A stretch of 63,851 nucleotides of DNA, counting the filler, from an uncultured Methanosarcinales archaeon (GTDB taxonomy: Archaea; Nanobdellota; Nanobdellia; Woesearchaeales; CAYSVS01), in the NCBI GenBank assembly GCA_964434475.1. It is 6 parts of 6 records of this genome, joined end to end, with 100 filler letters (N's around TTAATTAATTAA, not from the genome) between each part and the next. Parts side by side here need not be neighbours in the genome. Positions count along the whole stretch, not along the records: positions 1 to 12,050 come from CAYSVS010000041.1; 5 more parts are not named here. One strand, given 5' to 3'. Within the stretch, counting starts at the first letter, position 1. Each line of letters starts with the position of its first letter. The notes under the pieces were generated by a model. It ran no database searches, was not told the origin of the DNA, and worked only from the letters and a program-made list of their open reading frames with translations. A program made the position numbers and the translations under genes. This document shows positions 1 through 35,298 of the stretch, piece by piece.

Positions 1-145
1 AAATATCAAGTAGATATATAGAGTTTACGTTTTTGCTAATTTTGCAAAGTTCCCTCTATCAAATGAGCGAATGCGATACATAAAGAACAAGAAAAAAGGG
101 CAGTTTTCCGTAAAGTTTTAAATATTATTAAACTAAATTCTGTGT

Positions 146-1087
146 GTGGCACAAAAAAAGCAAAAACCTTGGAACAAAGGAAAAAAAGGATTGCAAGTTG
201 CTTGGAATAAAGGCAAGAAAGGAACTCATTTTTCTCCTAAAACTGAATTTAAAAAAGGCTCGGTACCTTGGAATAAAGGTAAAGGAAAATATATGTCGGG
301 AAGTAAAAATCCTTTTTATGGTAAGAAGCATTCAGAGGAAACAAGAAGAAAAATGAGTGAAGCTGCCAAAAAAAGAGTTAACGGAGGAATGTTTGGCAAA
401 AAACATTCTAAAGAAACAAAGAAAAAGATAAGCCATTCATCAAAAGGAAGAAAATCTCCGATGAAAGGAAAACATCATTCTAAAAAATCAAGAGTTAAAA
501 TGAGCCAATCTCAGAAAAAGTGGTTTGAAAATAATAATGTTTGGAATAAAGGAAAACCAATGCGTAAAGAATCTAGGCTTAAGCTTAGTGAAGCGCTTAA
601 AGGAAGAATTCCTTTTAATAAAGGAAAAACAAATGTTGGGATGTATGGAGAAGAAAAAGCTAAGGTTTTAGAGCAATTAAATAGAGAGCATATTTTAATC
701 ATGTATGCTTCAGGCACTTTTCCAAAACAAACAAATACAAAAATTGAAATATATATGAAAAAAGAAATGTTAAAGAGAGGATATCGAGAAAATATTGATT
801 TTTTTCATCAATTTAATTTTAATAATAAATTTATGTGTGATTTTGTATTTCTTAAACAAAAGATTGTTATAGAATGTGGTGGTGATTTTTGGCATGCAAA
901 TCCTGAAACATATGCTGGGAAAGAATTAAAGCAAGCACAATTAAATACTCTAAAAAAAGATAAAGCAAAAAATGCGTATATTTCTAAATTTGATAAAGGT
1001 TCTTGGAAACTATTGAGATTTTGGGAATGTGATATTAAAAAAGATGTTTCTAAGTGCGTTGATAAAATTGAAAAATATCTGAAATAG
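146..1087 (+). CDS. NUMOD3-repeat protein with C-terminal Vsr/DUF559-like endonuclease domain (cassette 1 cargo)
   Basis: Repeated PWNKGK and GKKHSxETxxK(M/I)S motifs; C-terminal CDFVF...VIECGGDFWH...LLRFWECDI. Flanked by IR AGGGCAGTTTTCC (97-109) / GGAAAACTGCCCT (1087-1099). Confidence 0.8.
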   Translation: MAQKKQKPWNKGKKGLQVAWNKGKKGTHFSPKTEFKKGSVPWNKGKGKYMSGSKNPFYGKKHSEETRRKMSEAAKKRVNGGMFGKKHSKETKKKISHSSKGRKSPMKGKHHSKKSRVKMSQSQKKWFENNNVWNKGKPMRKESRLKLSEALKGRIPFNKGKTNVGMYGEEKAKVLEQLNREHILIMYASGTFPKQTNTKIEIYMKKEMLKRGYRENIDFFHQFNFNNKFMCDFVFLKQKIVIECGGDFWHANPETYAGKELKQAQLNTLKKDKAKNAYISKFDKGSWKLLRFWECDIKKDVSKCVDKIEKYLK

Positions 1088-1125
1088 GAAAACTGCCCTA
1101 TCTGTTTTTTTAGCCTAAAAAGATT

Positions 1126-1161
1126 ATTTCACTTAAGAACGCGATCGCTCTTATATACCCT
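1126..1161 (+). repeat. Cassette junction S1 (collapsed form)
   Basis: ATTTCACTTAA-GAACGCGA-TCGCTC-TTATATACCCT. Same 8+6 core as S3 but without the inner arms and loop. Confidence 0.75.
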
Positions 1162-1231
1162 GACTTACGAACGAAATGTAGTGAGGAAGGTGCGTAGCGT
1201 TAGCGGAGCAAGTAAATTTAAGCGTGAAAAA

Positions 1232-1522
1232 TTACTCTCTTTCTTGCATATAGTCTACTACTATAGTTATTATTTTTTTTGTAATTTCATTGCAATTCTT
1301 AAATGAAATTTTATCTAAGATTTCGATTCCATATTTTCTAATTAAGTCACTGATTAAAGCGTGAATAAATGATTGAGTTGCTGATTCAATTTTTTCAAAA
1401 TCTAGAGTTATTTCTTCCTTTTTATTTAACATAGGAATTATTTTATTGATTCTAATATCTCTAGCTATATCTTTATTCTCAGCAAAGCTCCCGACTAAGG
1501 GGTGTAGTTTTATTGTAGTCAT
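1232..1522 (-). CDS. STAS-like domain protein (DUF4325 family; cassette 2)
   Basis: ITLDFEKIESATQSFIHALI motif; overlaps the stop of the upstream ATPase gene. Confidence 0.75.
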   Translation of the reverse strand: MTTIKLHPLVGSFAENKDIARDIRINKIIPMLNKKEEITLDFEKIESATQSFIHALISDLIRKYGIEILDKISFKNCNEITKKIITIVVDYMQERE

Positions 1523-2484
1523 ATAAATCTTGGCCTCCTATATTTTGCTTTTTTTCTTTCTCTCACAGTTTTTATATATGTTTCTCTAATTAAATCTAAT
1601 AAAATTGAAAACTTTTTTGTTGCGTCTAGTGATATGTCTATTCCTACAATGGTTCCATTCCAAAAAGGAAGATTTTCATCTTTAGAATGTCTATCTTTAA
1701 ATGGGTCTGAATATAATCTAATGTGTTTTTGTTCAGGTTTACTTTTTAGTAGTTTATACATGGCATTCCCGCTATATATCACAAAAAAGTCACGATTTAC
1801 CTTAGCAATTGACTTAATAAAAAACAATCCTGCTCCAGCATTAAATTCTGAGCCTCCCTCTTTTGTTGTAGTTCCAGTTATTCCTGGCGTCAGTGCTAGT
1901 TGAATTGCTTTTAAGTGAGTTGATGCAGGATAAGAATAACTGATTGCTTTTTTAATTCCAATACCTGTATCCACTATACCAATCCTAATAGTATTGCTTT
2001 TTTTATAGTATTGGGCTGAAAGTATTGCACCAGAGTTAGATTTAGAGTGTTCCAATACATTTCTCACTAACTCACTGACTATATATTTAATAGGTTCTAC
2101 TTGTTTAGGTTCTAGGTGTAATAAGGGAATCATTTCAGTAATAAAATTAGTCAATTCTGTTGAATTTTTTATTTGTGTTAGAGGTATGAATCGTCCAGCA
2201 GGTTCATGTTTTGTAACTTTTATATTTGATTCAATTCCTAAGAACTTAAATAAACCCATTCTCTCAAGATAATGTTTTGATGTTGCTTCAATTTTTTCAC
2301 AATCTATATTTGAAGATTTTACTTTTAGGCCAAGAGAAGCTAACATAGATAAAACTACTGGATGAATCGAAATCCATTTTTTATTTGCTGTAATTTCTAA
2401 TTTATCGGGGCGAGAACTATCAAATTTTCTAATAAATGGATCAATATTTCCTAAAAATGCACTATTTGGAAGGTGTATTTTCAT
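1519..2484 (-). CDS. Histidine-kinase-like (HATPase_c/anti-sigma-type) ATP-binding protein (cassette 2)
   Basis: N-box SELVRNVLEHS, G1 box IVDTGIGI, G2 box GAGL. Start placed at the ATG at 2484 (MKIHLP). Confidence 0.8.
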   Translation of the reverse strand: MKIHLPNSAFLGNIDPFIRKFDSSRPDKLEITANKKWISIHPVVLSMLASLGLKVKSSNIDCEKIEATSKHYLERMGLFKFLGIESNIKVTKHEPAGRFIPLTQIKNSTELTNFITEMIPLLHLEPKQVEPIKYIVSELVRNVLEHSKSNSGAILSAQYYKKSNTIRIGIVDTGIGIKKAISYSYPASTHLKAIQLALTPGITGTTTKEGGSEFNAGAGLFFIKSIAKVNRDFFVIYSGNAMYKLLKSKPEQKHIRLYSDPFKDRHSKDENLPFWNGTIVGIDISLDATKKFSILLDLIRETYIKTVRERKKAKYRRPRFI

Positions 2485-2586
2485 ATTACCGGGAAATATA
2501 ACAGTATTTATAAATGTTTTGTTTTTACCGGGAATCCCGGGCAATATATGTTTATTCTAATTCCCGGTAAATTCGCGCTTAAATTT

Positions 2587-2622
2587 ATTGAACTTAAGAT
2601 CGGCATGCCTCTTAAGTTCTCC
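2587..2622 (+). repeat. Cassette junction S2 (collapsed form)
   Basis: ATTGAACTTAA-GATCGGCA-TGCCTC-TTAAGTTCTCC; hairpin with a 2-nt bulge. Confidence 0.8.
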
Positions 2623-2738
2623 GCCAGTTACAAAGTTCTGGCGGATTGCGATCGCAAAGTAAAATTTAGGTTTCCAGTCAATTTCTACTGAAGGTAGACT
2701 ATATTTTAGGGAATTCTCTATGTTTAAAAATAAATAAT

Positions 2739-2930
2739 CTATTTTCCTTTTATCTCAGGAACAATGTCCAAAACGATTGTTTTTTCAGAATTTGTTAGTT
2801 CTTGATTTAAAACTAGTTTCTTGATAATATCTTTTAAAACTTTGTTTTCATTAGATAAACTACCAACTTGAGATTGAGCTTCATCTCTTTGACGTCTTGC
2901 AGTTATACCTGGCCATGGATTATTATACAT
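2739..2930 (-). CDS. Small hypothetical protein (cassette 3)
   Basis: 63-aa ORF with ATG start and an upstream GTGA motif; no family recognised. Confidence 0.45.
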   Translation of the reverse strand: MYNNPWPGITARRQRDEAQSQVGSLSNENKVLKDIIKKLVLNQELTNSEKTIVLDIVPEIKGK

Positions 2931-3137
2931 AATATCACTACAATGCTATTAGAAATAATACTTTATAAAACTAATCTAATTAATTTTCATTAAGTCGTTT
3001 ATTTATAAATAAAATCAAAAAGTATAAATATGACATAATACAATTTATGTAATAATGGCAAAAAGGGGATTAGCTAGTTTTCTTAGTAATCATACATTAG
3101 ATTTAAATTTATTCCTCATTTATAATGGGGTAGAAAA

Positions 3138-3827
3138 ATGAGTTCATGTATACGTAATAGAGAAATTTGTACCCCTGTCAATGATTTTATGTCGACATTT
3201 AGGACTGTTCTTGATAGCTTTTTTGTTAAGAAAGATCATACAATCAATGCACAATTAGTTATGAATGAATTAAAACAAAAAAAAATCAATATAGAACAGA
3301 TTAAGATTTTTCTAGATACTTTACCCAAAGAAGAATGGAGCATAAAAACTTTCCTTGATAATATTGAAAAACTTAATGATTTTTTCGGAATAAGTGATGA
3401 GGAAATTAATAAGTGGAGTGTGAATCAATTAAACGAAAAAGATGTCTTGGAAATAAGATTTAGAGTTGTTGTTGAATCTATGATAGAATATACTAGATTT
3501 GCATCTGAATTTTATGATGCTTTAAAATATAATACTAATAACCAACTTTCAATGGCAAAAATTAAATTGCTCAATGAATTAATGATGGTCTTTAAATATA
3601 TAAAAGAACAATCAAAAATGATATCGGAGCATTTTAAAAACCGCAAATACAGTATAAAAAATCTAAATGATTTAAATGTGGCCAGACTACCTATTGAATT
3701 TTTAGTTTTAAGAATTCTTTATATAAGTATGAATCTAGCAAAATCTAATGACAAAATGATTGTACATTATGCCGAACTACTCAGCAAAGAAAGAATTTCT
3801 TTAATATATCAGAAAGTAGTTGCATAA
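3138..3827 (+). CDS. Hypothetical helical protein (cassette 3)
   Basis: 229-aa ORF overlapping the start of the next gene. Confidence 0.65.
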   Translation: MSSCIRNREICTPVNDFMSTFRTVLDSFFVKKDHTINAQLVMNELKQKKINIEQIKIFLDTLPKEEWSIKTFLDNIEKLNDFFGISDEEINKWSVNQLNEKDVLEIRFRVVVESMIEYTRFASEFYDALKYNTNNQLSMAKIKLLNELMMVFKYIKEQSKMISEHFKNRKYSIKNLNDLNVARLPIEFLVLRILYISMNLAKSNDKMIVHYAELLSKERISLIYQKVVA

Positions 3828-4587
3828 AATGAAAACGGCATCTGATGTAAATACAATTTTTGCATATAATGATTCATCTCACTTCTTTCATAGACCAGTC
3901 TGCTTACACATGGCAAAAAATATTCGAGGAAAATATGTTCTATTAGATAAAGTAAAAGCAAATTTCATACACACTTATAGAACATACATGACTGATTGTG
4001 AAATTATTATTGAAAAGTCAGTAAGGGAGTACAAACAAAAATTAAGTTCATCACCTTCTAAAACATATACTCCTTCTCTACTAGCCATATCAAAAAATGT
4101 AGATAGCATTATAGCTGGACATTTAAAAAAAATGTCAAATAATATGGACTTTAACATTAAAGCGATAAGAATATTTATCACTTTAATGCTGAGTGATTAC
4201 TCCATTCCAGAACTTGTAAAGAACGATACTGCTTTAGGCGACTTTAAGGAAAAATACCTACTTAAAGCTGAAGAAAGAGCAAAAGATTCACTAAATAAAT
4301 TTGTAAAGTTTTTCAAATCAAATGAATTTGAATTAATGAATATAGGACAATATGAAACTTATGACGAATGGGTAAAAAAAATAAAAAATAGTAAAAATAA
4401 CAGTATTTTTAAAAATAAAAAAGATTATGAGGACATAACTATTGCTGCAGAACTATTTGCATTTAATTCGGAAATAAGTAAATTAGCATTTTTCACAACT
4501 GATTCCGATTTTCAATACTCAACTCCAAAGATAAGTAAAGAATATAAACAAGAAATCGGAAACATAACGTTAATATCAAATAAATAA
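3820..4587 (+). CDS. Putative PIN-like domain protein (cassette 3)
   Basis: N-terminal SDVNTIF and C-terminal EDITIAAE...FFTTDSDF acidic motifs resemble the PIN fold. Confidence 0.55.
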   Translation: MHKMKTASDVNTIFAYNDSSHFFHRPVCLHMAKNIRGKYVLLDKVKANFIHTYRTYMTDCEIIIEKSVREYKQKLSSSPSKTYTPSLLAISKNVDSIIAGHLKKMSNNMDFNIKAIRIFITLMLSDYSIPELVKNDTALGDFKEKYLLKAEERAKDSLNKFVKFFKSNEFELMNIGQYETYDEWVKKIKNSKNNSIFKNKKDYEDITIAAELFAFNSEISKLAFFTTDSDFQYSTPKISKEYKQEIGNITLISNK

Positions 4588-4671
4588 TATTTACTATTAG
4601 TTTAAAAAATATTAATTTATTTTTGTTAAAAAAGAGAATTCCCTATTTATTTTTATAGAAACCTAAATTTT

Positions 4672-4841
4672 ATTGAACTTAAGAACGCGATTAGGCGATA
4701 GTTTTTAGGGTGCAGAGCTGATTGAGGCAGCCCACAATCCTCTGAGGTTAGGGTGGCGTAGCTGGTAGAATTTGGGAGAACGTAGGCGAAGCTACGAAGT
4801 GGCGAGCCGTAGTGAACCGCCTAATCGCTCTTAAGTTCTCC
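4672..4841 (+). repeat. Cassette junction S3 (full form)
   Basis: ATTGAACTTAA-GAACGCGA-TTAGGCG...loop...CGCCTAA-TCGCTC-TTAAGTTCTCC. Two inverted dif-like sites with 8- and 6-nt spacers. Confidence 0.85.
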
Positions 4842-5110
4842 CGACTACGAAGTGGGAGGGATTGCGAAGCAAAGTTGTGTTTAAGTTCCAATCAATTCGA
4901 GCGTGGCGAGTCAATATGTCCGAAGCACGGGGGGAGTTCAGTTCTTTCAAAAGAGCGAAGCGATACTTCAAGAACAAGAATAAAGGGGAGTTCCTATTTT
5001 TTATATTTCAAGGCAGGGCCATCATTTACAACCCTTTAATAGTGACAAAAACAGAAAGAGTTATAACTGGGCGTAGCTTTATACCAATATTAAACTCATA
5101 AGGTGATAAA

Positions 5111-5944
5111 ATGTCAAAATTAGAAACAATTACTGATAATTTACATGATGGATATAATCAATTAAAGAAAGGCACTTTCAGAAGTTCAAAACAGATTCAA
5201 ACCGAAAGGATGAATAATGAAGAACTAAGAAATAAATACTTTTATACTGCTAATGTAGCTACTTATGAACATGCAAAAGATGGTACTGTTAGTTTTTCTC
5301 TTGGCGATGATGTTGCATTTGAATCCGTCATAGGAAGTGAAAATATAGGACAATTCTGTAATGATTTATTAGAAGAAGGAGACCATACGCTTAGTGATTC
5401 TCAAGTAAAAAAACTATCCGAACTTGATAAGAAACATGTTGTAAAGGTTAAGTATAATGATTTAAGATTAAACGAACATCATAGTCAGCTAAGTTATTTA
5501 GAAATCAATACGACTAATTTTGATTCACTAAATGATTCAGAGAAAGCACTTGTTAATATGGTTCATGGAAATGACTATAAGAAGAAAATGGAAATGCTTT
5601 CTGATTCAGGTATAAAAACCACTAAAATTTATATGTTGTCTGAAAATTATGTTAAAAATAATGTTAAGAAAGGTTCATCTATTGCGCGGGCGTGTTGGCT
5701 CGGTAGTTTCTATTACATTTCCTACTTCGGTGCTAATCTCAATAGTGTGGGTAGTCACGAGCGTCTGCGTGGGGTAAATAATTCCGGCGCAGCCGGTGTA
5801 AATGCGAACGATAGTGAGCAAACACAAAAATATACTGATATTGGAATAATTAAACACTTTGATGAAAATCCAATTAGAGACCTAGATTTAGCTAATAAAT
5901 TAATGGGCAAACTTAATGACTTTTATCAAAGTTTAAAACAGTAA
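5111..5944 (+). CDS. Putative diversity-generating retroelement (DGR) target protein (cassette 4)
   Basis: C-terminal ARACWL...FxA...RLRGV variable-region-like segment rich in NNY codons, followed by a CCGGC-GCA-GCCGG hairpin. AGGTGA RBS upstream. Confidence 0.75.
   Translation: MSKLETITDNLHDGYNQLKKGTFRSSKQIQTERMNNEELRNKYFYTANVATYEHAKDGTVSFSLGDDVAFESVIGSENIGQFCNDLLEEGDHTLSDSQVKKLSELDKKHVVKVKYNDLRLNEHHSQLSYLEINTTNFDSLNDSEKALVNMVHGNDYKKKMEMLSDSGIKTTKIYMLSENYVKNNVKKGSSIARACWLGSFYYISYFGANLNSVGSHERLRGVNNSGAAGVNANDSEQTQKYTDIGIIKHFDENPIRDLDLANKLMGKLNDFYQSLKQ
5684..5796 (+). other. Putative DGR variable region (about 5684-5776) plus cis hairpin (5784-5796)
   Basis: GC-rich stretch within an AT-rich gene. 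About 13 codons are of NNT/NNC form, derivable from AAT/AAC by adenine-specific mutagenesis. Confidence 0.7.
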
Positions 5945-6115
5945 ATATTAAATATTCTTTCTTTTTTATTATTCTTGTCTGGCTTAATTGCTGGGCTACA
6001 CGCTTTTTTATTTTTAGGAACTCCCCTTTTAGAATAATTAAATTTCTTTACTAAGTAAAGTGTAACTGTCCGAAGGACTAGAACTCCCCCTATTTTTTAA
6101 AAGAACTTAAACACA

Positions 6116-6253
6116 ATTGAACTTAAGATCGGAATTATCTGAAGTTTTTTGGTGAGGCAGCCCACACCAAAAAATTTGGGAAACATTCGGTAAATCGCTT
6201 GGCGATTTAGCGTAAGCGACCGAATTTTCCTGATAATTCTTCTTATATCCTTT
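6116..6253 (+). repeat. Cassette junction S4 (full form)
   Basis: ATTGAACTTAA-GATCGGAA-TTATC...loop...GATAA-TTCTTC-TTATATCCTTT. Confidence 0.85.
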
Positions 6254-6471
6254 TCCCATACTCAAGTGTGGGAAAACTGCGTCCGCAGAGTGGAATTTGA
6301 GTTGAAAGCGTAGATTTCTTTTAGTTTTTCAGTATTTAGGGGTTCCGAGTTATTAAGGGGTGAGAAAAAAATCATATTTAGTTTACTAAATAGTATACTA
6401 AAAAGAGAAAGTTTAAATAAAAGATATCCCCAACAACTCTTGTGCGATTGCTGGGGATATGTTCGATTCCT

Positions 6472-6774
6472 TCAAATTAAATCAATTTTGTTTCTGTTTT
6501 TGTAAGCTACTTCATCACGGTATGTTATCCTTTCAAAGGATCCGTTTTGTTCGATTTCTCGTAAATCGGCTTCCACGTCTTTTTTTCTGTTGCGGTATCT
6601 TCTGTAGATTTCCTTTAAAAAAACTACACTGTTGTGATGTTTTAACCTCATCTGAAGGAACCGTTCGACATTTGTTTTCATTTCAAACACCTCATGGTCC
6701 TCCAAACCGGCTTTTTTTCCGTGTAAGGAATCTACGTATGCGAAAAAACAGATATATTTATAAATCTTTCGCAA
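6472..6774 (-). CDS. Hypothetical protein (cassette 5)
   Basis: About 100-aa charged ORF divergent from the HTH gene; start uncertain. Confidence 0.5.
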   Translation of the reverse strand: MRKIYKYICFFAYVDSLHGKKAGLEDHEVFEMKTNVERFLQMRLKHHNSVVFLKEIYRRYRNRKKDVEADLREIEQNGSFERITYRDEVAYKNRNKIDLI

Positions 6775-6832
6775 TTACTGGAACTAAATGGTTCTATTTT
6801 GGAACTATTGCTTATGGAAAAGAGGTGATACC

Positions 6833-7156
6833 ATGAGGAGGCTTGACAAAATGGAGGTCAAAACTGTAGACGATTCGGCTTTTTTTGAGATACTAGGAAA
6901 AAGCCAGAACACTAAAATATTGGAATTATTTATTGAACGAGATAGAGATCAATTTAATTTTAGTGAAGTCGCTGAAATGGCTAATGTGCAAAGGCAAAAA
7001 ATAAAAGAAATCCTGGATATTTATTGTAAGATTGGATTACTTTCAATTGCCAAAGAAAGAAAAAATAGAAAATTGTATGTTTTAAACAATTCGAATGCTT
7101 ATGCTAAGCATATTAAAAAAATATATCAGCTAATATTAAAAGAAAAAAACCTATAA
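6833..7156 (+). CDS. Winged helix-turn-helix protein (cassette 5)
   Basis: KILELF...FNFSEVAEMANV...KIGLL...LYVLN wHTH pattern; GAGGTGA RBS before the ATG at 6833. Confidence 0.75.
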   Translation: MRRLDKMEVKTVDDSAFFEILGKSQNTKILELFIERDRDQFNFSEVAEMANVQRQKIKEILDIYCKIGLLSIAKERKNRKLYVLNNSNAYAKHIKKIYQLILKEKNL

Positions 7157-7269
7157 TTTTTTAATTTTTAATTATTTTAAAGAAAGAATTTCATATGTGT
7201 AGTGTTAAATTATTTGAAGTGCTAGATTTATATATAATTATTATTTTTTATTCTAAAAAGGTAAATGAA

Positions 7270-8088
7270 ATGTTAGGAAGACACCATAGTGCATTGACAA
7301 TTGGAACTATTTTACCATTTTTAATTCCTTTAATATTTGTATCAAATGATAATGCCTTAATTTATGGGTTTACTTTCTTGATTGCGGCATTAATTGGATC
7401 ATTGACGCCTGATGCTGATTGTGGAGGTAATGCAACATTATACTATAGATTTGGTCCTATTGATTGGCTGATGAAAAAAGTAGTCATTAAATTGACCATT
7501 AAACTATATGAACAACCTTATTTGAAAAAACAGGTTCAAGAGGGATATAAAGTTCAAGAAGAGCACAGAGGAATTATGCATGCACCTGCGGGGATTATTA
7601 TCAGTTCTTTGATTTTGACTATTATTGGAGCAATTATCGCATATTTTGTTGAATTATTTAATATTACATATTTAATGATAATTTTTAGTGGTTTGTTGGT
7701 CGGACAATTTTTCCATTTGTTAGAAGATAGTTGTACTGTTTCGGGAATCAATTGGAAATTTCCTAAAGGAAAAAAAGAATTAAGTGGGAATATCTACACA
7801 TTTGATAAATTTCAAGATAAAAAAGATTATAGACCAGATCTATTTTTTGAAATTTTATCTGTATTAAACTTGGCGATATTCTTACTATTAGGCTTAGAAA
7901 AAATGACACTTGCATTATGGCAGTATTATCTAATCGTCTGCTTCACTATACTGATCATATGGCTATTTTTTCTTTGGTTATCTGGTATTTGGTCTGAATC
8001 AAAAGAAATTCCAAAAATATTCTTAATTGACAAGGAGAAATATAAAGAAATAAAGAAAGGATTAAGAAAATCAATAAAACAAAGGTGA
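7270..8088 (+). CDS. YdjM-like membrane metal-dependent hydrolase (cassette 5)
   Basis: MxGxxH, GSLTPDAD, HRGIMH and HLLEDxxTxSG motifs; several TM helices. Confidence 0.85.
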   Translation: MLGRHHSALTIGTILPFLIPLIFVSNDNALIYGFTFLIAALIGSLTPDADCGGNATLYYRFGPIDWLMKKVVIKLTIKLYEQPYLKKQVQEGYKVQEEHRGIMHAPAGIIISSLILTIIGAIIAYFVELFNITYLMIIFSGLLVGQFFHLLEDSCTVSGINWKFPKGKKELSGNIYTFDKFQDKKDYRPDLFFEILSVLNLAIFLLLGLEKMTLALWQYYLIVCFTILIIWLFFLWLSGIWSESKEIPKIFLIDKEKYKEIKKGLRKSIKQR

Positions 8089-8126
8089 ATTGATTCGTTA
8101 ATTTTATATTGTTTGTATGCTATTAA

Positions 8127-8912
8127 ATGAAAATGGTTAAGAAAAAAGATTTAGGACATTTGATATCTCCAGTACTCAAAGCAGGATTGAATATACCTAC
8201 ATGCGGTTTTGCAAGTGCCATAGCAGATGTTTTTGATGCACCATATAAAATTCAAAGACAAAAAAATTTAAAGAATTTTGTTGATCAAACAATAAAAAAA
8301 GTCAAAGAGTTAGATATAAAGATTTCAGAATTAGATTTTAAAAAAAGAATTAATGAGCCTGAATTTATACAATTATTTTCAGAGATTCTTAATAAAATTC
8401 AAAACGAAACAAGAGCGAAGATTAGACAAAGTTACTCAAATTTATTGACTAATTTATTAAAAGAAGAAGCAAATATTAATTTTAATAAAAAAATGTTTTT
8501 CGTAAAACTCTTGGAGAGTCTTAATGAAGATCACATCAAATTGTTGCATATATTTTATAAGGATAGAACTGTAAAAAATAGGCTGAAATTAGATACTTTA
8601 CATCAAAAAATGAACTGTTTCATAAAACGTAAAAGAAAAAAAGGAGACCCTGTTAGTTTATTTACTGATGATAAAAGCAAATATATTACTGTTCTTGATG
8701 AATTAAAAAGCTCATATATAGAATCATTAATAAGTGATTTAGACAGTAAGAAACTAATCAATATTGAAATGGATATTTCTTCGGAAGCTAATGTTGATGA
8801 AAACGAAGGTAATGTTACGGCAGTTGATTCCATTGACAATGATATATCTTATGAATATATGGGAACTCAATTAGGATTTGATTTCTATAAGTCAATAAAA
8901 GAATATAAGTAG
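8127..8912 (+). CDS. Hypothetical protein, possibly Abi-alpha/DUF4393-like (cassette 5)
   Basis: Helical core with YSNLL...FVKLLESLNEDHIKLL and a C-terminal wHTH-like TQLGFDF; resemblance only. Confidence 0.5.
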   Translation: MKMVKKKDLGHLISPVLKAGLNIPTCGFASAIADVFDAPYKIQRQKNLKNFVDQTIKKVKELDIKISELDFKKRINEPEFIQLFSEILNKIQNETRAKIRQSYSNLLTNLLKEEANINFNKKMFFVKLLESLNEDHIKLLHIFYKDRTVKNRLKLDTLHQKMNCFIKRKRKKGDPVSLFTDDKSKYITVLDELKSSYIESLISDLDSKKLINIEMDISSEANVDENEGNVTAVDSIDNDISYEYMGTQLGFDFYKSIKEYK

Positions 8913-9050
8913 TTTCTTATTTTAAAAATTGATAGACCTATTTTTTTACGTATTGTTTTTTTTCTCGCCCCTTACATTATTTTCTTTTGCTTTGCAAAAG
9001 GCTAGATTTACTCGGAACCCCTCATCTTTATTGTTAAGAACTCAAATTCC

Positions 9051-9139
9051 ATTGGATATAAGACCTATTATGCGCATTTCTTTTTCGCATAATGTGCGTA
9101 TAAAGTGGTTATTGCGCATAATTAGGTCTTAAGTGCTTG
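9051..9139 (+). other. Terminal dif-like recombination site S5 (candidate chromosomal attachment site)
   Basis: ATTGGATATAA-GACCTA-TTATGCGCATT (11-6-11, 9051-9078), an extra half-site TTTTCGCATAA (9082-9092) and an inverted copy ATTGCGCATAA-TTAGGTC-TTAAGTGCTTG (9111-9139). Confidence 0.75.
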
Positions 9140-9211
9140 ATTTTGGACGTATGTGTTATAGAATATGTGTGTCCTTTTAGCTCAGTTTAACATTGTTAAA
9201 TTCAGAACTGT

Positions 9212-9616
9212 TTAGTTTAGAAGATTGCTTAGCTCTTGTTTTATGTCAGGTATTCTTGTGCTTTGTATTGTCTTTGTCTGCTGGCGGATGCCATTTTCAT
9301 CTTTGCCGTACTGCGTATATTCTTTATTTATGTGTGTCTTGCATTTTGCTATAAATTTAGTATATCCTATATCTTTGTTAATCTTTATCTCTATTAGCCT
9401 TTCTATGCCATTATTATATTTTATCTTGTATTCTTCTGTGCAAGCTATTGATTTTCTTTTGGATATCTTAACTGCTTCGCAATACTCAGGATTATGTATC
9501 CTTTCGGAATAAAGTCTTTTGATATCCTTTAATGTTTTTACTTTATTGTTTTCAAGATAATTTAATATGCATTTTGCGGCATATTTCATATCTTTCTTTG
9601 TAATCTTTGAATTCAT
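9212..9616 (-). CDS. Hypothetical protein
   Basis: 134-aa ORF; no family recognised. Confidence 0.55.
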   Translation of the reverse strand: MNSKITKKDMKYAAKCILNYLENNKVKTLKDIKRLYSERIHNPEYCEAVKISKRKSIACTEEYKIKYNNGIERLIEIKINKDIGYTKFIAKCKTHINKEYTQYGKDENGIRQQTKTIQSTRIPDIKQELSNLLN

Positions 9617-9714: not shown

Positions 9715-10959
9715 ATGAAACTTATTGCTGATTTACATATTCATGGAAAATACAGCCAGGCAACTTCTAAAGAGCTTACTATCCCTAATTTAGAGAAATG
9801 GGCAAGGATAAAAGGTGTCAACTTGTTAGGCACTGCTGACTTTACACATCCAAAATGGATAGAGCATATCAAAGAAAACCTAGAAGAGGATGACACAGGA
9901 ATATTAAGAACAAAATCAGGCTTTCCTTTCATGTTACAGACAGAGCTTTCTTTAATCTACAGTCAGGGCGGAAGAGGCAGGAGAGTACATAATATTGTAC
10001 TTGCAAAAAATATAGAGGTAGTACAACAAATAACAGAGGCTTTGTTAAAAATAGGAAGAGTAGATTATGACGGAAGACCTATATTTGGCATGAGCTGCAT
10101 TGAATTTGTTGAGCTTATGAAAAGCATAGACAAAGATATAGAGATCATTCCAGCACACATATGGACTCCTTGGTTTTCTGTATTCGGAAGCAAAAGCGGT
10201 TTTGACACATTAGAAGAATGCTTTGGTGACCAACTAAAACATATACACGCATTAGAGACTGGATTAAGTAGTGATCCTGCGATGAACTGGCGTTTATCAC
10301 AATTAGACAAATATACATTGATAAGCAATTCTGATTTACATTCATTCTGGCCTTGGCGTATAGGTAGAGAAGCAAATATTTTTGAAATCAACAAATTAAC
10401 CTATGATAACATACTCCAGATTCTAAAAACAAAAGAAGGCCTAAAAGAAACTATAGAAGTGGATCCTGCATACGGTAAATATCATTATGATGGTCATAGA
10501 AAATGCAATGTGTGTTTAAAGCCGTCAGAAACTATGAAAATGCAAGGTATTTGTCCTGTATGCAAAAGACCATTGACTATAGGTGTAGAATATAGAGTAG
10601 AGCAATTAGCAGACAGACCGCAAGGATTTAAGCCAAGAAATGCTATTCCATTCAGAAGCTTAATACCTTTATCAGATATAATCTCAAAAATAAAAGGAAG
10701 AGCTGTTACAACTAAGACAGTCTGGGCTGAATATAATAACTTGATCAAGGAATTTGACAATGAATATAATATTCTATTGAATGTAGGGTCCCAGGAATTG
10801 AAGAAAGTGTGTGATGAAGAATTAGCAACAGCGATAGTCAATTCTCGATTAGGTAACATCAAAGTACAGCCTGGATTTGATGGTGAATACGGCACACCTT
10901 TATTTTCAGAAAGCGATAAAAGAGTATTTCATAATATAGAAAAAAACAAAAAGGTTTGA
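9715..10959 (+). CDS. Endonuclease Q family PHP-domain protein (TIGR00375-like)
   Basis: ADLHIHGKYS, GTADFTHP, PAHIWTPW, SNSDLHS, GKYHYDGHRKC and CPVC zinc motif. Confidence 0.9.
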   Translation: MKLIADLHIHGKYSQATSKELTIPNLEKWARIKGVNLLGTADFTHPKWIEHIKENLEEDDTGILRTKSGFPFMLQTELSLIYSQGGRGRRVHNIVLAKNIEVVQQITEALLKIGRVDYDGRPIFGMSCIEFVELMKSIDKDIEIIPAHIWTPWFSVFGSKSGFDTLEECFGDQLKHIHALETGLSSDPAMNWRLSQLDKYTLISNSDLHSFWPWRIGREANIFEINKLTYDNILQILKTKEGLKETIEVDPAYGKYHYDGHRKCNVCLKPSETMKMQGICPVCKRPLTIGVEYRVEQLADRPQGFKPRNAIPFRSLIPLSDIISKIKGRAVTTKTVWAEYNNLIKEFDNEYNILLNVGSQELKKVCDEELATAIVNSRLGNIKVQPGFDGEYGTPLFSESDKRVFHNIEKNKKV

Positions 10960-29859: not shown

Positions 29860-29932
29860 GCCTCTGTAGCATAGTAGCTATTGCGTCGGTCTCGTAAACC
29901 GAAGGTCGGGAGTGCAACTCTCCCCAGAGGCT
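29860..29932 (+). tRNA. tRNA-Thr(CGT)
   Basis: Acceptor stem GCCTCTG/CAGAGGC, anticodon arm TCGGT-CTCGTAA-ACCGA, T arm GGGAG-TGCAACT-CTCCC; no encoded CCA. Confidence 0.92.
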
Positions 29933-30025
29933 TATATCCCTACAGTATAGATCTTTTTTTGTAGTTTACACATAAAATAAGACAAAAAATGTTTATATCA
30001 TATTATTTCTTATAAAAACAATAAA

Positions 30026-30264: not shown

Positions 30265-30292
30265 ATTTCGCATAATAGGTGTTATATTCAAT
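30265..30292 (-). other. Second dif-like recombination site
   Basis: Minus strand ATTGAATATAA-CACCTA-TTATGCGAAAT; 24/28 identical to S5. Confidence 0.78.
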
Positions 30293-30428
30293 TTTTGGAT
30301 TACTTATTTTTAGAAAGAGAGAGGGGCTTAGTCCTTCGGACATTTTGCCTTTTACTTCGTAAAAGAATTTATAGGAAGGGGCGTCAAGATAGTCTTTTTC
30401 TGCGAAAAAGAAATTTATTAGGGGCGTT

Positions 30429-30920
30429 TTAAACATAAAAATAGATTATTAAACTCCATAAAATCAAAATCAAATTTGTTATTGATGTGTAAAACCAAGG
30501 AAATTTATATTTTCTTATTCTACAAAACCAAATATAAACTAGCAAAATCCACTCTACAAATATCAATATTAAATATTCTTTTACAATAGGAAAAACCCAA
30601 TTCAAAAATAAACCAAAAAGCAAAACTAAGAAAAAACCTACTACTAACTCTAACAGAAAAAACACAAAACCTTTCTCTTTCGTAGAAAATAGATGATTTC
30701 CAAATATTTTACTATAACCTTTACCACCCTCATACACAATTCCCGGAATCATCGCTCCAATTGTTAATGTAAAAAACCATACTAAAAATGTCAATAAAAC
30801 ATTTATATGAGAAATAATTGTATCTTTCATTAACCATAAAAGTAAAACATAAACTCCAGTAATGAGAAAAATAACAAGTTCAGTCCACCATTTAATTTTT
30901 TCTTTATTATTTTTTCCCAT
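30429..30920 (-). CDS. Hypothetical membrane protein (about 5 TM helices)
   Basis: Hydrophobic 163-aa ORF, last gene of the RM operon. Confidence 0.7.
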   Translation of the reverse strand: MGKNNKEKIKWWTELVIFLITGVYVLLLWLMKDTIISHINVLLTFLVWFFTLTIGAMIPGIVYEGGKGYSKIFGNHLFSTKEKGFVFFLLELVVGFFLVLLFGLFLNWVFPIVKEYLILIFVEWILLVYIWFCRIRKYKFPWFYTSITNLILILWSLIIYFYV

Positions 30921-30927
30921 AGTGATC

Positions 30928-31410
30928 TTATAATTTCGGCGTCAAACTGGAATAATCAATACAATCTCTCGCTTTATCCCACTTCGCTATTTGCATAAAT
31001 TTATTTGTTTTTGTTCCAAACTTCAATAAATCTTCTCTTTTCAAGACATTAATAATATGTGATAATCTGCCTAATCCTTTAGAAGAAACTAAAAAAGATT
31101 CTATTGGATCTATTAATTGAGTGTATCCCCAAAGCTGTCCTAAATCTTTGAGAGTTAAATCTGTGTCTTTCACTTCAACAAAAACAAGTTTAAACTCATC
31201 GCCTCTTTTCAAAATTCCTACAATATCTACTTTTATTTGTAAGCCTATTGCTTCTTTACATTGGATGCCTTTACTTTTCAAAACAACATCTAAGTTTCTT
31301 CTTGAAGTTTCATAAGTAGTCTGAACTGTATAACCTTTGTATTTATCAGTTAAGTAATTCTGCAACCATTCTTTTATTTCAGGATAAAGTTTTTCTTCTT
31401 CTTTACTCAT
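30928..31410 (-). CDS. Small PD-(D/E)XK nuclease-fold protein
   Basis: EEKLY...VDIVG...FVEVK...GQLxGY motif. Confidence 0.7.
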   Translation of the reverse strand: MSKEEEKLYPEIKEWLQNYLTDKYKGYTVQTTYETSRRNLDVVLKSKGIQCKEAIGLQIKVDIVGILKRGDEFKLVFVEVKDTDLTLKDLGQLWGYTQLIDPIESFLVSSKGLGRLSHIINVLKREDLLKFGTKTNKFMQIAKWDKARDCIDYSSLTPKL

Positions 31411-32314
31411 CGTAACCTAACTCCTTTGACATATCTTTCCAACTATCAAAATGTTTTCTAACTTTTGTGGGTAATTTCGTACTTTTTTCTTCTGGATGTT
31501 TTGGTTTTTTCCTGTTTATTTCCTTAGTCTCCCAATAAAATTTATGATGTGCTTCTGAAATTGGTTTATCCTTATATTTTTTAGAATCTTTTGATGCTTC
31601 TTTCCAATTTTTTCTGTTTAAGTCAGCAAATCTCTTTAGAAGCTTATTTTTATGGTCAATATTAAAACCTACTTTTTCAAATTCTTCTGCCCATACTTTT
31701 ATTTGATGTTCTTTATTCCAAAATTCTTTTGAACCTTCATTATATTTTTTCAAATTTGGATCAACTATGTTTGGATGAGCAAACCTAATTGTTTGAACTG
31801 GAACATCTAATTCTTTTAGCAAATTCGCAATATCTATGCACAAATCCCAATTAACCATTATTTCAACATAAACTCTATTTTCATAATCTTTCCATGCAAC
31901 ATTACTTTTTCTTATATGAGCTGTTACGTCGGCAATTCCTCTTAAAAATTCTAATTTTATGTCTTTTGTTGCAGAAAATATTTCTGTTGGTATTCTTACA
32001 TCTCTCCAGCTTACATGGTTTTTCAAATATGTGTTAATAGTTCTTATCAAATAATCTCCATTTGGTTTTGAAAAAGAAATATGGGCGATGTTTGGTCTTG
32101 AGGTGTCCCATTCCATATCTGCTCCAACAAGAATTTTTAATCTTCCAACAATATCTAATAAACTTGACTTTACTGATTGTTGGGTATTCTCTCCTTCAAT
32201 CACTAAATTTTTATGTGGAATATCTATGATAATCTCCGTATCTCTATTTCCTCTAATTATTTGTCCTTTCCCGACAATCATTCCCAATAAATAAGCTATA
32301 TCTGCATTTAACAT
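31403..32314 (-). CDS. LAGLIDADG-like two-motif protein with degenerate catalytic residues
   Basis: IAYLLGMIVGKG and IPxxIF...EFLRGIADVTA. Confidence 0.6.
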   Translation of the reverse strand: MLNADIAYLLGMIVGKGQIIRGNRDTEIIIDIPHKNLVIEGENTQQSVKSSLLDIVGRLKILVGADMEWDTSRPNIAHISFSKPNGDYLIRTINTYLKNHVSWRDVRIPTEIFSATKDIKLEFLRGIADVTAHIRKSNVAWKDYENRVYVEIMVNWDLCIDIANLLKELDVPVQTIRFAHPNIVDPNLKKYNEGSKEFWNKEHQIKVWAEEFEKVGFNIDHKNKLLKRFADLNRKNWKEASKDSKKYKDKPISEAHHKFYWETKEINRKKPKHPEEKSTKLPTKVRKHFDSWKDMSKELGYDE

Positions 32315-32318
32315 TTTT

Positions 32319-33119
32319 TCACTTCCTAAATATGAGTATGAACTCATGAACTTTATTTACTCTAAATACAAATGGATAACCAAGAGGACGCATATTATTA
32401 TACTCTTTTTGTCTATCCCAAATAATCATATCATCTAATTCAAAACCAATTTCTTGCATTTTGTTTATCATATCCATATGAAATGGATAAAACTTTGCTT
32501 TTTTTCTAATGTCCATTACCACAACGATACAATATTTTCCTTTCTTTAAAACTTTATAGACGCCTTCAAATCCTGTTTTGAGTTTATTTAAGAATTCTTG
32601 ATAATCTGCGATATTTCCCAAGTCATCTTTTGAATTACTATAATTTCTTATTTCTTTTCTATCGGCTGACCTTTTGGCGTTTAGAATATCCCAATATGGC
32701 GGAGATGTAATAACTAAATCAACAGAATCTTCTTTTAATGTTTTAGGAATATCAAAAATAGTTTTATTATAAATTTCTGGCTTAATTAAATCCTCTGGCT
32801 TTTGTTCTAAATTTAACTGAGTTTCTTTTATTCTATTTTCAGATAATTTAATGTATTCTTTAGAAAGTTCAAATCCTATTCCTTTTCGACCTAATTTATA
32901 GGCAGATACGACCGTACTTCCACTTCCTAAAAACGGATCTAAAACAACTTCCCCTTTATTTTTAGTGTGAATTTGAATTAATCTTGATGTTAATTGAGTT
33001 GGAAACATAGCAGGATGTTTTAATTTCCTTTCTCCGTTGGTTTTTTCAATATCTTTCCAAATACTAAAAGAGTATTGTAACCATTCTTTCCCTGTTAAAT
33101 TATTCATTCGTTCTCCCAT
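32319..33119 (-). CDS. Amino-DNA methyltransferase (probably N4-cytosine)
   Basis: HPAMFP, DPFLGSGST, TSPPY. Confidence 0.9.
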   Translation of the reverse strand: MGERMNNLTGKEWLQYSFSIWKDIEKTNGERKLKHPAMFPTQLTSRLIQIHTKNKGEVVLDPFLGSGSTVVSAYKLGRKGIGFELSKEYIKLSENRIKETQLNLEQKPEDLIKPEIYNKTIFDIPKTLKEDSVDLVITSPPYWDILNAKRSADRKEIRNYSNSKDDLGNIADYQEFLNKLKTGFEGVYKVLKKGKYCIVVVMDIRKKAKFYPFHMDMINKMQEIGFELDDMIIWDRQKEYNNMRPLGYPFVFRVNKVHEFILIFRK

Positions 33120-33120
33120 T

Positions 33121-34788
33121 TTACCACAAACTTTTTTCAGACATTATTTGCTTTAATGCCATGTTTATTTTATCTTGTTCAGTTTTAGTTAATCCATATA
33201 GCTTATAGACCTTTTTATCCAATTCAGGCAATAATTTTTTTATATTACCTTGATTAATTTCTCTAACAAGACTAATAATCTCTTTTTGTTTTTCTTTAGT
33301 AACTTTTTTAATTGGAATTTTGCCTAAATAAACTTTATCTGTGTGCATGGTTAATTTTGATTTATTGAAAACTGCATACATCAAATAGAAATTTATCAAT
33401 TTAGAATTTAACAAGCCATAGATATAATCTAATTCGTAAGATTTGTCTTTAAGAATAATGTTACTTACAGTATCAAAATTCAAATTTCCTTTTTCGTCTA
33501 TTGCGGAAATAATCCCTGCTTCTCTTGAAAAGATATTCTGAAGAATTATTTTTCTCTTTTGAAGTTCTCCTAATTTCGAAGAATCATTCATTAAACATTT
33601 AGCATCAATAAAAAAACCATTTGTAAAAAAAGACTTTGAAATATCATTACCCTTAATAATTGAAACATTTTCCTTGCCCTTTGATTTAGATATAATCTTA
33701 GAATTTGGACTTATAGAAATTCCTCTAAAAATGTCTGCAATATTTTCTAAATTGTTTCCTTTAATTTTATCTATCAACTCATAATAAGACTTATCTTCAA
33801 ACATCAAAAAAGTATTATATTTTTGAAAAGTTTTTTGAGGAACAAAAAATTCTTTATCCTTATCAAATAACTTGATTAAAACCTTATTATTTTGTATTTG
33901 TTCTTTTTTAGTTGTTTTTTGTATGAATAAAACAACCTGTTCTCCTCGAACATCTTTAAAACAAGTACTTAAATCAAGTATATGTAATATTTTGGAATTA
34001 TTTAATAAAAATTCCCTTAATCTTGAATATGAGTTTACTCTAATTAATGTTTTAGGCAAAACAAAAGCCATCACTCCACCCTCTTTGAGAAGCTCATAAG
34101 ATTTAGCAATAACTAAAGAAGCAGCATTTGTGCTACCATTAGCAATATGAGAGAAGAAAGATTCAGAAACATCATAATCTCTTTTATTCTTTAAAGTTAC
34201 ATAAGGGGGATTTCCGATTATAAAATCAAAGCCGCCCTCATCAAGAATTTCCGAAAATTGTTTTTTCCAATCAAAAGCTTTTTTATCCATAAGTTTATTC
34301 TCAACAATAGAATTCCCTATTTTAATATTTTTTTCAAGAATGTTTAGTGAGTTTGAATCTTGACCATTTCTTAACCATAAATTTATTCTTGCTATCTTTG
34401 TTGCAGAATTATTTAAATCAACACCAAAGATGTTATTTATTGCATTAGGATTCTTTTGTTTTAAATGATTATATGCAGTTACTAAAAAAACACCACATCC
34501 ACAAGTTGGATCTAAGATTTTAGAATCTGCTTTAATATCAAGAAAATTGACCATATAATTAACGATTTCTTGCGGAGTGTAAAACTGCCCTAAATCCTTT
34601 TTTTCTTGTTCTCTTATTAATTTTTCAAATAAAACTCCAAGGGTATCTTCTTTAATCTTTGCTATTTGTTCTTGTTCAATTTTTTTAACTACTTTTTTAA
34701 TGATTTTATCTTGATATGGTAAGGACTCCAAAGTATCTCTACTTAAATGAAAATTCTCTTGCGTTGGATGAACTAAAATAGTGTCCAT
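33121..34788 (-). CDS. N6-adenine DNA methyltransferase (gamma class) with TaqI-like TRD
   Basis: GQFYTP, LDPTCGCGVFL, GNPPY, GLLNSKL. Confidence 0.92.
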   Translation of the reverse strand: MDTILVHPTQENFHLSRDTLESLPYQDKIIKKVVKKIEQEQIAKIKEDTLGVLFEKLIREQEKKDLGQFYTPQEIVNYMVNFLDIKADSKILDPTCGCGVFLVTAYNHLKQKNPNAINNIFGVDLNNSATKIARINLWLRNGQDSNSLNILEKNIKIGNSIVENKLMDKKAFDWKKQFSEILDEGGFDFIIGNPPYVTLKNKRDYDVSESFFSHIANGSTNAASLVIAKSYELLKEGGVMAFVLPKTLIRVNSYSRLREFLLNNSKILHILDLSTCFKDVRGEQVVLFIQKTTKKEQIQNNKVLIKLFDKDKEFFVPQKTFQKYNTFLMFEDKSYYELIDKIKGNNLENIADIFRGISISPNSKIISKSKGKENVSIIKGNDISKSFFTNGFFIDAKCLMNDSSKLGELQKRKIILQNIFSREAGIISAIDEKGNLNFDTVSNIILKDKSYELDYIYGLLNSKLINFYLMYAVFNKSKLTMHTDKVYLGKIPIKKVTKEKQKEIISLVREINQGNIKKLLPELDKKVYKLYGLTKTEQDKINMALKQIMSEKSLW

Positions 34789-34928: not shown

Positions 34929-34939
34929 CATCATCCCCT

Positions 34940-34957
34940 TTATGTAAGCTTACATAA
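34940..34957. promoter_or_regulatory. Perfect 18-bp palindrome, candidate operator of the RM operon
   Basis: TTATGTAAGCTTACATAA between a TATA-like tract and the RHH start. Confidence 0.55.
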
Positions 34958-35297: not shown

Positions 35298-35298
35298 T

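Follow-up and report, generated by a model that had tools for sequence, protein, structure and literature searches.

INTRODUCTION

Integrons, Xer/dif systems and the elements that exploit Xer recombination have until now been regarded as distinct, if related, systems. We describe here a type of locus that joins them, found in a stretch of 63,851 nucleotides (the window, filler included) in which six records of the assembly GCA_964434475.1, from an uncultured archaeon placed in the Woesearchaeales, are joined end to end. By its genes (L10e ribosomal protein, NOG1, EF-1 beta, Trm1) the window is archaeal. Positions 1-9139 hold an array of gene cassettes with five junctions of common design (J1 to J5), and the last of these, J5 at 9051-9139, is the subject of this study. 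From comparison of sequences we consider it probable that J5, in an archaeon of the Woesearchaeota type (DPANN), is the terminal site at which cassettes enter an integron-like array, that this site is attI-like and derived from dif, and that a paralogue of the recombinase XerA runs the array.

The attP(+) site of the CTX phage arises when two inverted dif-like sequences fold into a hairpin that forms an Xer core. In integrons, attC and attI are cleaved at AA/C...GTT. Integrons with the integrase IntI and canonical attC sites have been described in Archaea together with attC clusters that lack an integrase (CALINs), and Data S1 of that study includes Woesearchaeales metagenome-assembled genomes with four attCs and no IntI (Ghaly et al. 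2022, PMC9668308). Integrative mobile elements exploiting Xer (IMEX) and the pdif systems are described as bacterial (PMC5357621, PMC13141974); pdif sites alternate in orientation, with C and D modules (PMC13141974). Some archaea are known to have xerA/dif modules (PMC5357621), and XerA of Pyrococcus abyssi binds and recombines a dif oligonucleotide whose left arm is given as ATTGGATATAA (Cortez et al. 2010, PMC2958812). Our literature search found no description of cassette arrays linked to a XerA paralogue and ending at a dif-like primary site in DPANN archaea.

RESULTS AND DISCUSSION

The terminal junction is a dif-like hairpin

J5 is made up as follows:

9051-9139, + strand: J5, the terminal junction of the array, an imperfect hairpin formed by two inverted dif-like cores and read as a site of the primary (attI-like) type
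9051-9061, + strand: outer arm ATTGGATATAA, the final 11 nt of cassette 5, identical in 11/11 positions to the left arm of P. abyssi dif
9062-9067, + strand: central region GACCTA, read directly
9068-9078, + strand: inner arm TTATGCGCATT, read directly
9062-9078, + strand: primary interior (central region plus inner arm), as in 30265-30281 (reverse complement) and in the recombinase-side site of the related genome G402
9082-9092, + strand: half-site TTTTCGCATAA, G-type, in the hairpin loop
9093-9103, + strand: fourth half-site TGTGCGTATAA, G-type, in the hairpin loop, overlooked in the first-pass annotation of this stretch
9111-9139, + strand: mirror copy ATTGCGCATAA-TTAGGTC-TTAAGTGCTTG, that is, inner arm, a central region of 7 nt with one extra T, and the closing arm (arm')

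The exact 11-6-11 geometry that the first-pass annotation had assigned to 9051-9078 is borne out by direct reading. The site has the form of a dif site, a 28-bp imperfect inverted repeat with a single mismatch to ATTGNNNNTAA-N6-TTANNNNCAAT. At one mismatch or less, this form occurs twice in the window (at 9051 and 30265) where 0.13 occurrences are expected, a number reached by 2 of 100 shuffles; at up to three mismatches the window shows no enrichment (18 against 22 expected). Two likenesses noted in the first-pass annotation hold against the published sequences, as the outer arm equals the left arm of the P. abyssi dif oligonucleotide at every one of its 11 positions (PMC2958812) and the XerC arm of Escherichia coli dif is printed as GGTGCGCATAA (PMC3025954). 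Over its whole length the 28-bp site at 9051-9078 is identical to the P. abyssi oligonucleotide at 20/28 positions, in the reverse-complement register. This core of J5 is closer still to two other sites, with 24/28 identities to 30265-30292 and 23/28 to the recombinase-side site of G402. The motif TGCGCATAA, at one mismatch or less, has 11 matches in the window, four of which fall within the 54 bases of 9068-9121.

The half-site at 9082 and the inverted copy with a 7-nt spacer at 9111-9139 are both present, and the inverted copies do pair. They had been taken for a lone half-site and a further copy of the site; in fact the former lies in the loop, and the latter forms the second strand, of a single hairpin, which is number five of the series J1 to J5. 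As single-stranded DNA, 9059-9131 folds into a single hairpin of -19 kcal/mol, which none of 200 shuffles equals (z-score -6.2 for the + strand and -6.9 for the - strand). The arm' of J5, TTAAGTGCTTG, complements the left arm of J1, CACTTAA.

Sites of this kind adjoin XerA-type genes in relatives

Genomes, contigs and loci of relatives are cited by our working numbers (G, C and L). G402 holds TTCGCATAATAGGTGTTATATTCAAT, identical at 26/26 nt to the copy at 30265, with a contig end 42 nt away; it lies 92 nt upstream of the gene for a tyrosine recombinase of 262 residues (Phage_integrase, Pfam 4.5e-41), whose best solved relatives are XerA of Thermoplasma acidophilum and P. abyssi, 5hxy (9e-40) and 4a8e (1e-39). 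The recombinase is present in 87/120 genomes of the order of G353, another relative, a count that includes the unpublished G481, whose sequence was otherwise not used. Upstream sites were surveyed at the 30 best recombinase matches with a strict detector (AAC[ATC]NN[TCG]ATT and, within 150 nt, the following 9 nt repeated in inverted form), which found a site at 22 of the 30 loci and in 94 of 3000 shuffles (3%). Five further loci (L155, L158, L159, L172, L181) have an arm-CANNTA-TTA core without the hairpin that the detector demands; upstream of L168 and L180 the survey found nothing, and L156 has 2 nt of upstream sequence. The distance from primary site to gene is about 90-150 nt, and up to about 285 nt in two loci. 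A contig end lies within 450 nt upstream of the recombinase at 16/30 loci, as is expected beside variable arrays.

On long contigs, in two of these genomes, the site closes an array of co-oriented junctions. G448 has six co-oriented junctions (at 6638, 6945, 7359, 8078, 8908 and 10623), a primary site at 17566 and the recombinase gene at 17643, its last cassette comprising six open reading frames (ORFs); in G409 four junctions (11141, 13392, 15292 and 16986) are followed by the primary site (17585) and then the gene (17709). Their junctions follow the pattern ATTGNNNNTAA-CATCGS-GMTTAA...AAGTT and belong to the same family as those of the window, GAWCGS-GATTA...AGTTTTT. A junction was also seen in six other loci, within the 1.5 kb fetched upstream, and contig C11 of G402 carries a GA-type junction like those of the window, ATTGAACTTAA-GATCGC, with a leader resembling 4829-5000 and 1-112 of the window ahead of a different gene. 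Of the arrangement of an integron, a primary site beside the integrase gene with the array on the far side, the relatives show the site beside the gene at 22/30 loci, with arrays in G448 and G409; the window is without a recombinase gene. At L177, L164 and L170 the primary sites are full hairpins with an arm'.

That J5 marks the end of the array, as first annotated, agrees with these loci, where kindred sites close cassette arrays beside an XerA-type gene. Since the interior of J5 is of the primary type, as found at the array end 90-150 nt upstream of the XerA-paralogue gene in relatives, J5 is likely to be attI-like. It is best read as a hybrid, with an outer arm that would stem from cassette 5 and a central region and TTATGCGCA inner arm that would be of the primary type.

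One platform looks decayed: at L185 (G178:C1, about 217.2-217.9 kb on a 910-kb contig), a Clade I recombinase gene (see below) contains three stop codons, and a primary-type site is still present upstream. A scan of genome contigs for ATTGAACTTAAGAWCG returned at least 120 matches, nearly all of them chance matches in bacteria, and the one Woesearchaeota match among those listed lies inside an Sm-protein gene.

The five junctions share one design

Each junction runs from an 11-nt arm of the general form ATTGNNNNTAA through a central region starting with GA (CA in the relatives), a stem and loop, and a return central region that is 1-2 nt shorter, to an arm'. The arms are ATTTCACTTAA at J1, ATTGAACTTAA at J2, J3 and J4, and ATTGGATATAA at J5; the arm' takes the form TTAAGTTC, TTATATCC, TTATATAC or TTAAGTGC, with TTANNNNC as the general form. 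The other four junctions are:

1126-1158, + strand: J1, a minimal junction ATTTCACTTAA-GAACGCGATCGCTC-TTATATAC; weak fold, z-score -0.95
2587-2619, + strand: J2, a minimal junction ATTGAACTTAA-GATCGGCATGCCTC-TTAAGTTC with a 2-nt bulge (TC); z-score -3.5
4672-4838, + strand: J3, a hairpin junction with arm ATTGAACTTAA, GA[AC]GC, stem GATTAGGCG/CGCCTAATC, a loop module with TGAGGCAGCCCACA, and arm' TTAAGTTC; z-score -3.2
6116-6250, + strand: J4, a hairpin junction with arm ATTGAACTTAA, GA[TC]GG, stem GGAATTATC/GATAATTC, a loop module of the J3 type, and arm' TTATATCC; z-score -7.4

The observation that every spacer begins with GA stands for all five junctions: GAACGC at J1 (1137) and J3 (4683), GATCGG at J2 (2598) and J4 (6127), and GACCTA at J5. 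J2, J3 and J4 fold beyond their shuffles, and J1 shows no excess over shuffles; J1 equals J3 minus a loop insert of 132 nt, and ATTGAACTTAAGATCGG is common to J2 and J4. The hairpin stems covary (GAG/CTC, CCG/CGG, AAA/TTT, AAG/CTT, GCG/CGC, ACG/CGT, CAA/TTG). When a junction folds, the result is an 11-6-11 core whose central region carries two bulged bases (top CA[TC]GG, bottom CC-TG), a design like that of integron attC sites and of the attP(+) hairpin of the CTX phage. An attC site is an imperfect hairpin with extrahelical bases and AAC/GTT core boxes; the hairpins here have one or two bulged bases, and the core reads TAAC...GTTA in the relatives and TAAG...CTTA in the window.

The cassettes of the window hold from one to three or four ORFs, and each has long, imperfect terminal inverted repeats of its own. 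In cassette 5, 6241-6371 pairs with 8957-9063, and the left arm of J5 is the last 11 nt of this repeat, pairing with 6243-6250 at J4; the arm' of J4, TTATATCC, is the complement of the J5 outer arm. Cassette 5 is laid out as follows, its limits being those of the model given in the next section:

6127-9061, + strand: cassette 5 as a putative unit (interior of the J4 hairpin; arm'; two small hairpins ahead of a start repeat that extends to 6371; genes; end repeat; arm)
6788-7156: gene with a winged helix-turn-helix domain
7195-8088: YdjM gene
8127-8912: Abi_alpha-like gene, match below cut-off
8957-9050: end repeat, followed by the arm

Arm adjacency points to exchange between arm and central region

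In three of the four pairs in the window (J2 to J3, J3 to J4 and J4 to J5), a junction's arm' is complementary to the following junction's arm at 8/8 positions. In G448 the corresponding match is at least 7/8 in 6/6 pairs, and the arm of its last cassette, ATTGTATTTAA, abuts the central region of the primary site together with the adjoining repeat. Adjacency of this kind beside the primary site holds in all five of L160, L167, L171, L174 and L181. Arms therefore move with the left-hand cassette and arm's with the right-hand one, while the interior of the primary site stays with the gene, which places the exchange at the boundary of arm and central region; each hairpin interior consequently belongs to the cassette on its right. 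We infer a crossover at TAA/CA in the relatives and at TAA/GA in the window. This boundary is the canonical cleavage position of a tyrosine recombinase monomer on that arm. The first-pass annotation had suggested, after CTX-type IMEX integration, that homology is needed only at a few overlap bases, and a crossover between the 11-nt arm and the GA or CA that opens the spacer fits that suggestion.

On this model, a cassette would comprise a central region, its own hairpin, an arm', a leader, genes and its own arm, and cassettes would join their neighbours by crossover at the arm/central-region point (TAA/GA). J5 would be the hybrid left by such an exchange, and most likely it acts, or once acted, as an attI-like insertion point. 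The substrate would be a folded single strand, with only one strand exchanged, and by analogy with attI cassette 5, standing next to J5, would be the newest of the array, as had been proposed.

Other placements of the crossover were rejected. A crossover 3' of the hairpin, which would then belong to the left-hand cassette, conflicts with the arrays of the relatives, which extend from the outer arm of their primary sites, and with central regions that are self-complementary within hairpins. A classical exchange in the middle of the palindrome is ruled out by the intact interior of every hairpin. Readings as IS200/IS605-type elements or as MITEs were dropped, since they leave the dif core and the link to a recombinase unexplained.

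Two recombinase clades and the probable place of the true dif

A tree of 44 recombinases (L159, having no intact ORF, was omitted; the midpoint root serves for drawing only) falls into two clades with 100/100 support. Clade I comprises 33 rows, including G402 and all array-linked genes, and Clade II comprises 11. Bit scores to P. abyssi XerA are 195 and 176 for Clade II against 140 and 136 for Clade I. Symmetric dif-like sites with TKCGYATAA arms precede at least 4 of the 11 Clade II genes (L190, L191, L192, L201), standing directly before the start codon, as in TTACGCGTATAA-GGTACA-TTATACGCGTA. These sites are probably true xerA/dif modules, and the chromosomal dif of such genomes would lie there. 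The inner arms of J5 belong to this TKCGYATAA type as well, in keeping with an origin of the primary site from dif.

Two stretches of the G402 recombinase align to IntI4, and in place of 66 residues of IntI4 it has 19; the Clade I protein lacks the IntI-specific insert. The housekeeping XerA is a less likely enzyme for J5 than a separate XerA paralogue of Clade I, itself without a gene in the window. It is such a Clade I recombinase that would catalyse cassette exchange.

A second copy of the core

Two further features bear on the nature of J5:

30265-30292, + strand: second dif-like core ATTTCGCATAA-TAGGTG-TTATATTCAAT, inverted relative to 9051-9078 and identical to it at 24/28 positions
30293-35169, - strand: restriction-modification cassette bordered by the 30265 copy, with terminal inverted repeats at 30292-30432 and 35010-35169

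The next-best matches in the window to either 28-mer have at least eight mismatches. A chromosomal dif occurs once per chromosome, at the replication terminus; here two copies, at 9051 and 30265, stand inverted at a distance of 21 kb in the joined window, which argues against a unique chromosomal dif.

Some details of this region stand apart. The 3' end of a tRNA-Thr, the sole Rfam match at the gathering threshold, runs directly into a dif-type arm, TTATATCC, at 29930-29942, and an ORF of 53 codons lies between this arm and the 30265 site; the arm may be the remnant of another unit. At 35198, within the far junction of the restriction-modification cassette, the contig breaks off, and 35199-35298 consists of two runs of N flanking TTAATTAATTAA, a stop-codon linker.

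Evidence against the reading, and the alternatives

Several observations weigh against J5 as an attI-like site of a working array. To its right follow an unrelated ORF of 134 residues on the opposite strand (9212-9616) and then housekeeping genes, with no recombinase gene, unlike in the relatives. None of the 71 ORFs of the window matches Phage_integrase, and a tblastn search of the window with the G402 recombinase gave nothing below E 1.5. Homologues of the PHP-domain gene that lies right of J5 (9715-10959) occur in 208/401 genomes of the class, the nearest proteins being those of G353 (77% identical) and G402 (76%). Neither has a site of the J5 type upstream of this gene: in G353 a gap of 48 bp separates it from rpoA'-rpoA''-L30e-nusA genes (labels read from ORF translations), and in G402 the preceding genes are unrelated. 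The comparison covers these two relatives, in which left-hand synteny is not conserved. The first-pass annotation, which took J5 for a candidate attachment site, had itself named absence from the syntenic position as evidence to the contrary, and absence is what we find; judged by these two relatives, J5 is not a conserved chromosomal attachment site at this locus. Arm adjacency fails between J1 and J2 (5/8) and in three of the four pairs of G409, holding in one. Neither the copy at 30265 nor the G448 and G402 primary sites fold better than chance (z-scores from -1.5 to 0), unlike J5. No junction stands beside the homologues of a cassette-2 gene (described below) in the five other genomes examined. 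Contigs from three sequencing runs contain neither a joint left by cassette excision nor an empty site, a result that is uninformative either way, and the stretch itself is present only in the probable source run. Finally, the window is a join of contigs (the N linker at 35199-35298), so that its long-range layout is uncertain.

The alternative that survives best is that J5 is one more attC-type junction, with dif-type arms by chance, a truncated or decayed right side, the ORF at 9212-9616 as the remnant of a sixth cassette, and no insertion point at all. The strong, full hairpin of J5 could equally belong to an ordinary junction with a primary-like interior: it has an arm' TTAAGTGC as J3 and J4 do, this arm' complements the left arm of J1, no recombinase gene comes after it, and the primary sites of G448 and G402 fold differently. 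However, full hairpins with an arm' also occur at the primary sites of L177, L164 and L170, the core of J5 is matched by the G402 site (23/28) and the 30265 copy (24/28) and is not like J1-J4, and no end arm GCACTTAA followed by GA or CA exists in 9140-35198, to the right of J5. We therefore regard an ordinary junction as unlikely.

According to a second alternative, J5 is the true dif of the chromosome, at which the housekeeping XerA resolves dimers, and the cassettes are IMEX-type elements that have piled up there, as at dif1 of Vibrio. The 11-6-11 geometry, an outer arm identical to that of a dif site tested with XerA, an inner arm of the type that precedes at least four Clade II genes, and the xerA/dif modules known in some archaea (PMC5357621) would all suit it. 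The two inverted copies 21 kb apart in the joined window do not, nor does the fact that G353 and G402 have no such site upstream of their PHP genes. Moreover, a site with a variable outer arm, CANNTA and one G-type arm goes with Clade I, whereas Clade II has symmetric sites of its own, and the outer arm differs between genomes and matches the adjoining cassette, which is unexpected of a fixed dif. J5 is probably not the chromosomal dif, and this scenario as a whole strikes us as quite doubtful.

A third alternative without any site-specific recombination, in which the junctions are terminators, operators for a TGCGCATAA-binding factor or MITE-like repeats and cassettes are shuffled by homologous exchange between repeated borders, is very improbable, because even though the long leaders common to the borders could provide homology, the junction modules are multi-copy in the community and a relative of the loop module stands beside a possible transposase-like ORF in L146 (judged from its first residues only), it explains neither the exact switch of arm and spacer with cassette-specific complementary arms (6/6 in G448), nor the identity to a tested Xer arm, nor the link to a recombinase (22/30 loci against 3% of shuffles).

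Comparison with known systems and significance

An integron-like array ending at J5 would share much with integrons proper. In the relatives, a recombinase gene pointing away from the array stands beside the primary site and is followed by co-oriented cassettes; each cassette bears as its site an imperfect hairpin in which bases bulge; the putative crossover at AA/C (TAA/CA in the relatives) corresponds to the point used in the folded bottom strand of attC; the cargo is of the accessory or defence type, and many arrays have no integrase nearby. In contrast to integrons, the likely enzyme here is a XerA paralogue of 260-280 residues lacking the IntI-specific insert, the site is a full dif-type 11-6-11 core, and the window has TAAG...CTTA instead of AAC...GTT. 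In the arm/spacer model the hairpin would lie upstream of the genes rather than downstream. The cassettes, too, differ, being often multi-gene (1-4), with a shared leader and cassette-specific terminal inverted repeats of 100-130 nt.

With IMEX and the CTX phage the locus shares units that have no recombinase of their own and a pair of inverted dif-like sequences that can fold to give a single Xer core whose central region is imperfect; homology would be required beside one cleavage point only, and the units are stacked in tandem at one site. It differs in that the units are small gene cassettes rather than phages or islands, in that it is archaeal, and in its likely enzyme, a dedicated paralogue with a site of its own rather than the housekeeping Xer acting at the chromosomal dif. 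The pdif modules of Acinetobacter, as they are described, are likewise accessory modules bounded by 28-bp Xer-type sites with inward arms of the same kind; however, pdif sites are plain duplex sites on plasmids, alternating in orientation, whereas all junctions here are co-oriented hairpins, which in the relatives are chromosomal and beside a recombinase gene. As for archaeal XerA/dif, the 28-bp 11-6-11 core, the identical outer arm and the recombinase family are held in common with the system of Cortez et al. (2010, PMC2958812), but sites of the J5 type are asymmetric (a variable arm and a G-type arm), tied to cassettes, and neither unique nor conserved in place.

More tentatively, we raise the possibility that DPANN archaea of the Woesearchaeota type run an integron independent of IntI, in which a XerA paralogue captures cassettes at a dif-derived attI by way of folded, dif-shaped hairpins and the AA/C point. 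If true, either the integron principle would have been invented independently from Xer/dif, or the system would still show in living form how integrons arose from it. It would offer a testable route from the resolution of chromosome dimers to gene capture. It would also show how tiny symbiotic archaea (genomes of about 1 Mb in the relatives searched) maintain a variable reservoir of accessory and defence genes, and would explain the frequent assembly breaks just upstream of the recombinase gene (16/30 loci). The integrase-less attC clusters reported in Nanoarchaeota could find an explanation as well, and the Woesearchaeales genomes included in Data S1 with four attCs and no IntI may be arrays of the J1-J5 kind.

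Other features of the array and its surroundings

The cargo is of an accessory or defence type and includes a homing-endonuclease-like (NUMOD3/DUF559) gene and an Abi-like gene, along with the restriction-modification genes of the cassette at 30293-35169. Cassette 2 (1232-2544) encodes a DUF4325 (STAS-like) protein and a histidine-kinase-type ATPase with weak matches to the N-terminus of DrmA. Homologues of this ATPase occur in 6/120 genomes of the order, five of them near full length and 66-78% identical, as high as housekeeping proteins reach, and nucleotide alignments (63-71% identity) extend into the neighbouring DUF4325 gene at three of these five loci (L204-L206). This distribution suggests a recent horizontal spread of the gene pair. 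A tblastn search with 12 cassette and flank proteins gave no match in any of the fetched loci of relatives.

Immediately to the right of J5, at 9146-9175, GGACGTATGTGT...ATATGTGTGTCC pair mostly through G-T and on the + strand only, which suggests an RNA helix rather than a DNA helix.

The loops of J3 and J4 (4692-4823 and 6136-6235) contain a conserved module, TGAGGCAGCCCACA ... AATTTGGGA, whose closing stems covary. TGAGGCAGCCCACA was found in 0/401 genomes of the class. A metagenome scan for the module returned three loci, of which two are chance matches (62% GC) and one is a true relative, lying in L146 just upstream of the ORF mentioned above; the module also occurs in other contexts in the sequencing runs X2 and X3. 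The junction modules are multi-copy among the run contigs of the source community. In the probable source run, positions 1-55 of the window fall on a contig of 1105 nt whose depth is 292, whereas the rest has about 9; it follows that the junction lying left of where the window starts is a repeat of high copy number.

A cassette leader of about 115-150 nt stands before unrelated genes at 4829-5000, at 1-112 and at L211:1589-1740 (G402). It holds TTGTGTTTAAGTTC, GGGGGGAGTTCAGTTC and AGCGAAGCGATAC...AGAACAAGAATAAAG, and may carry a promoter shared by the cassettes.

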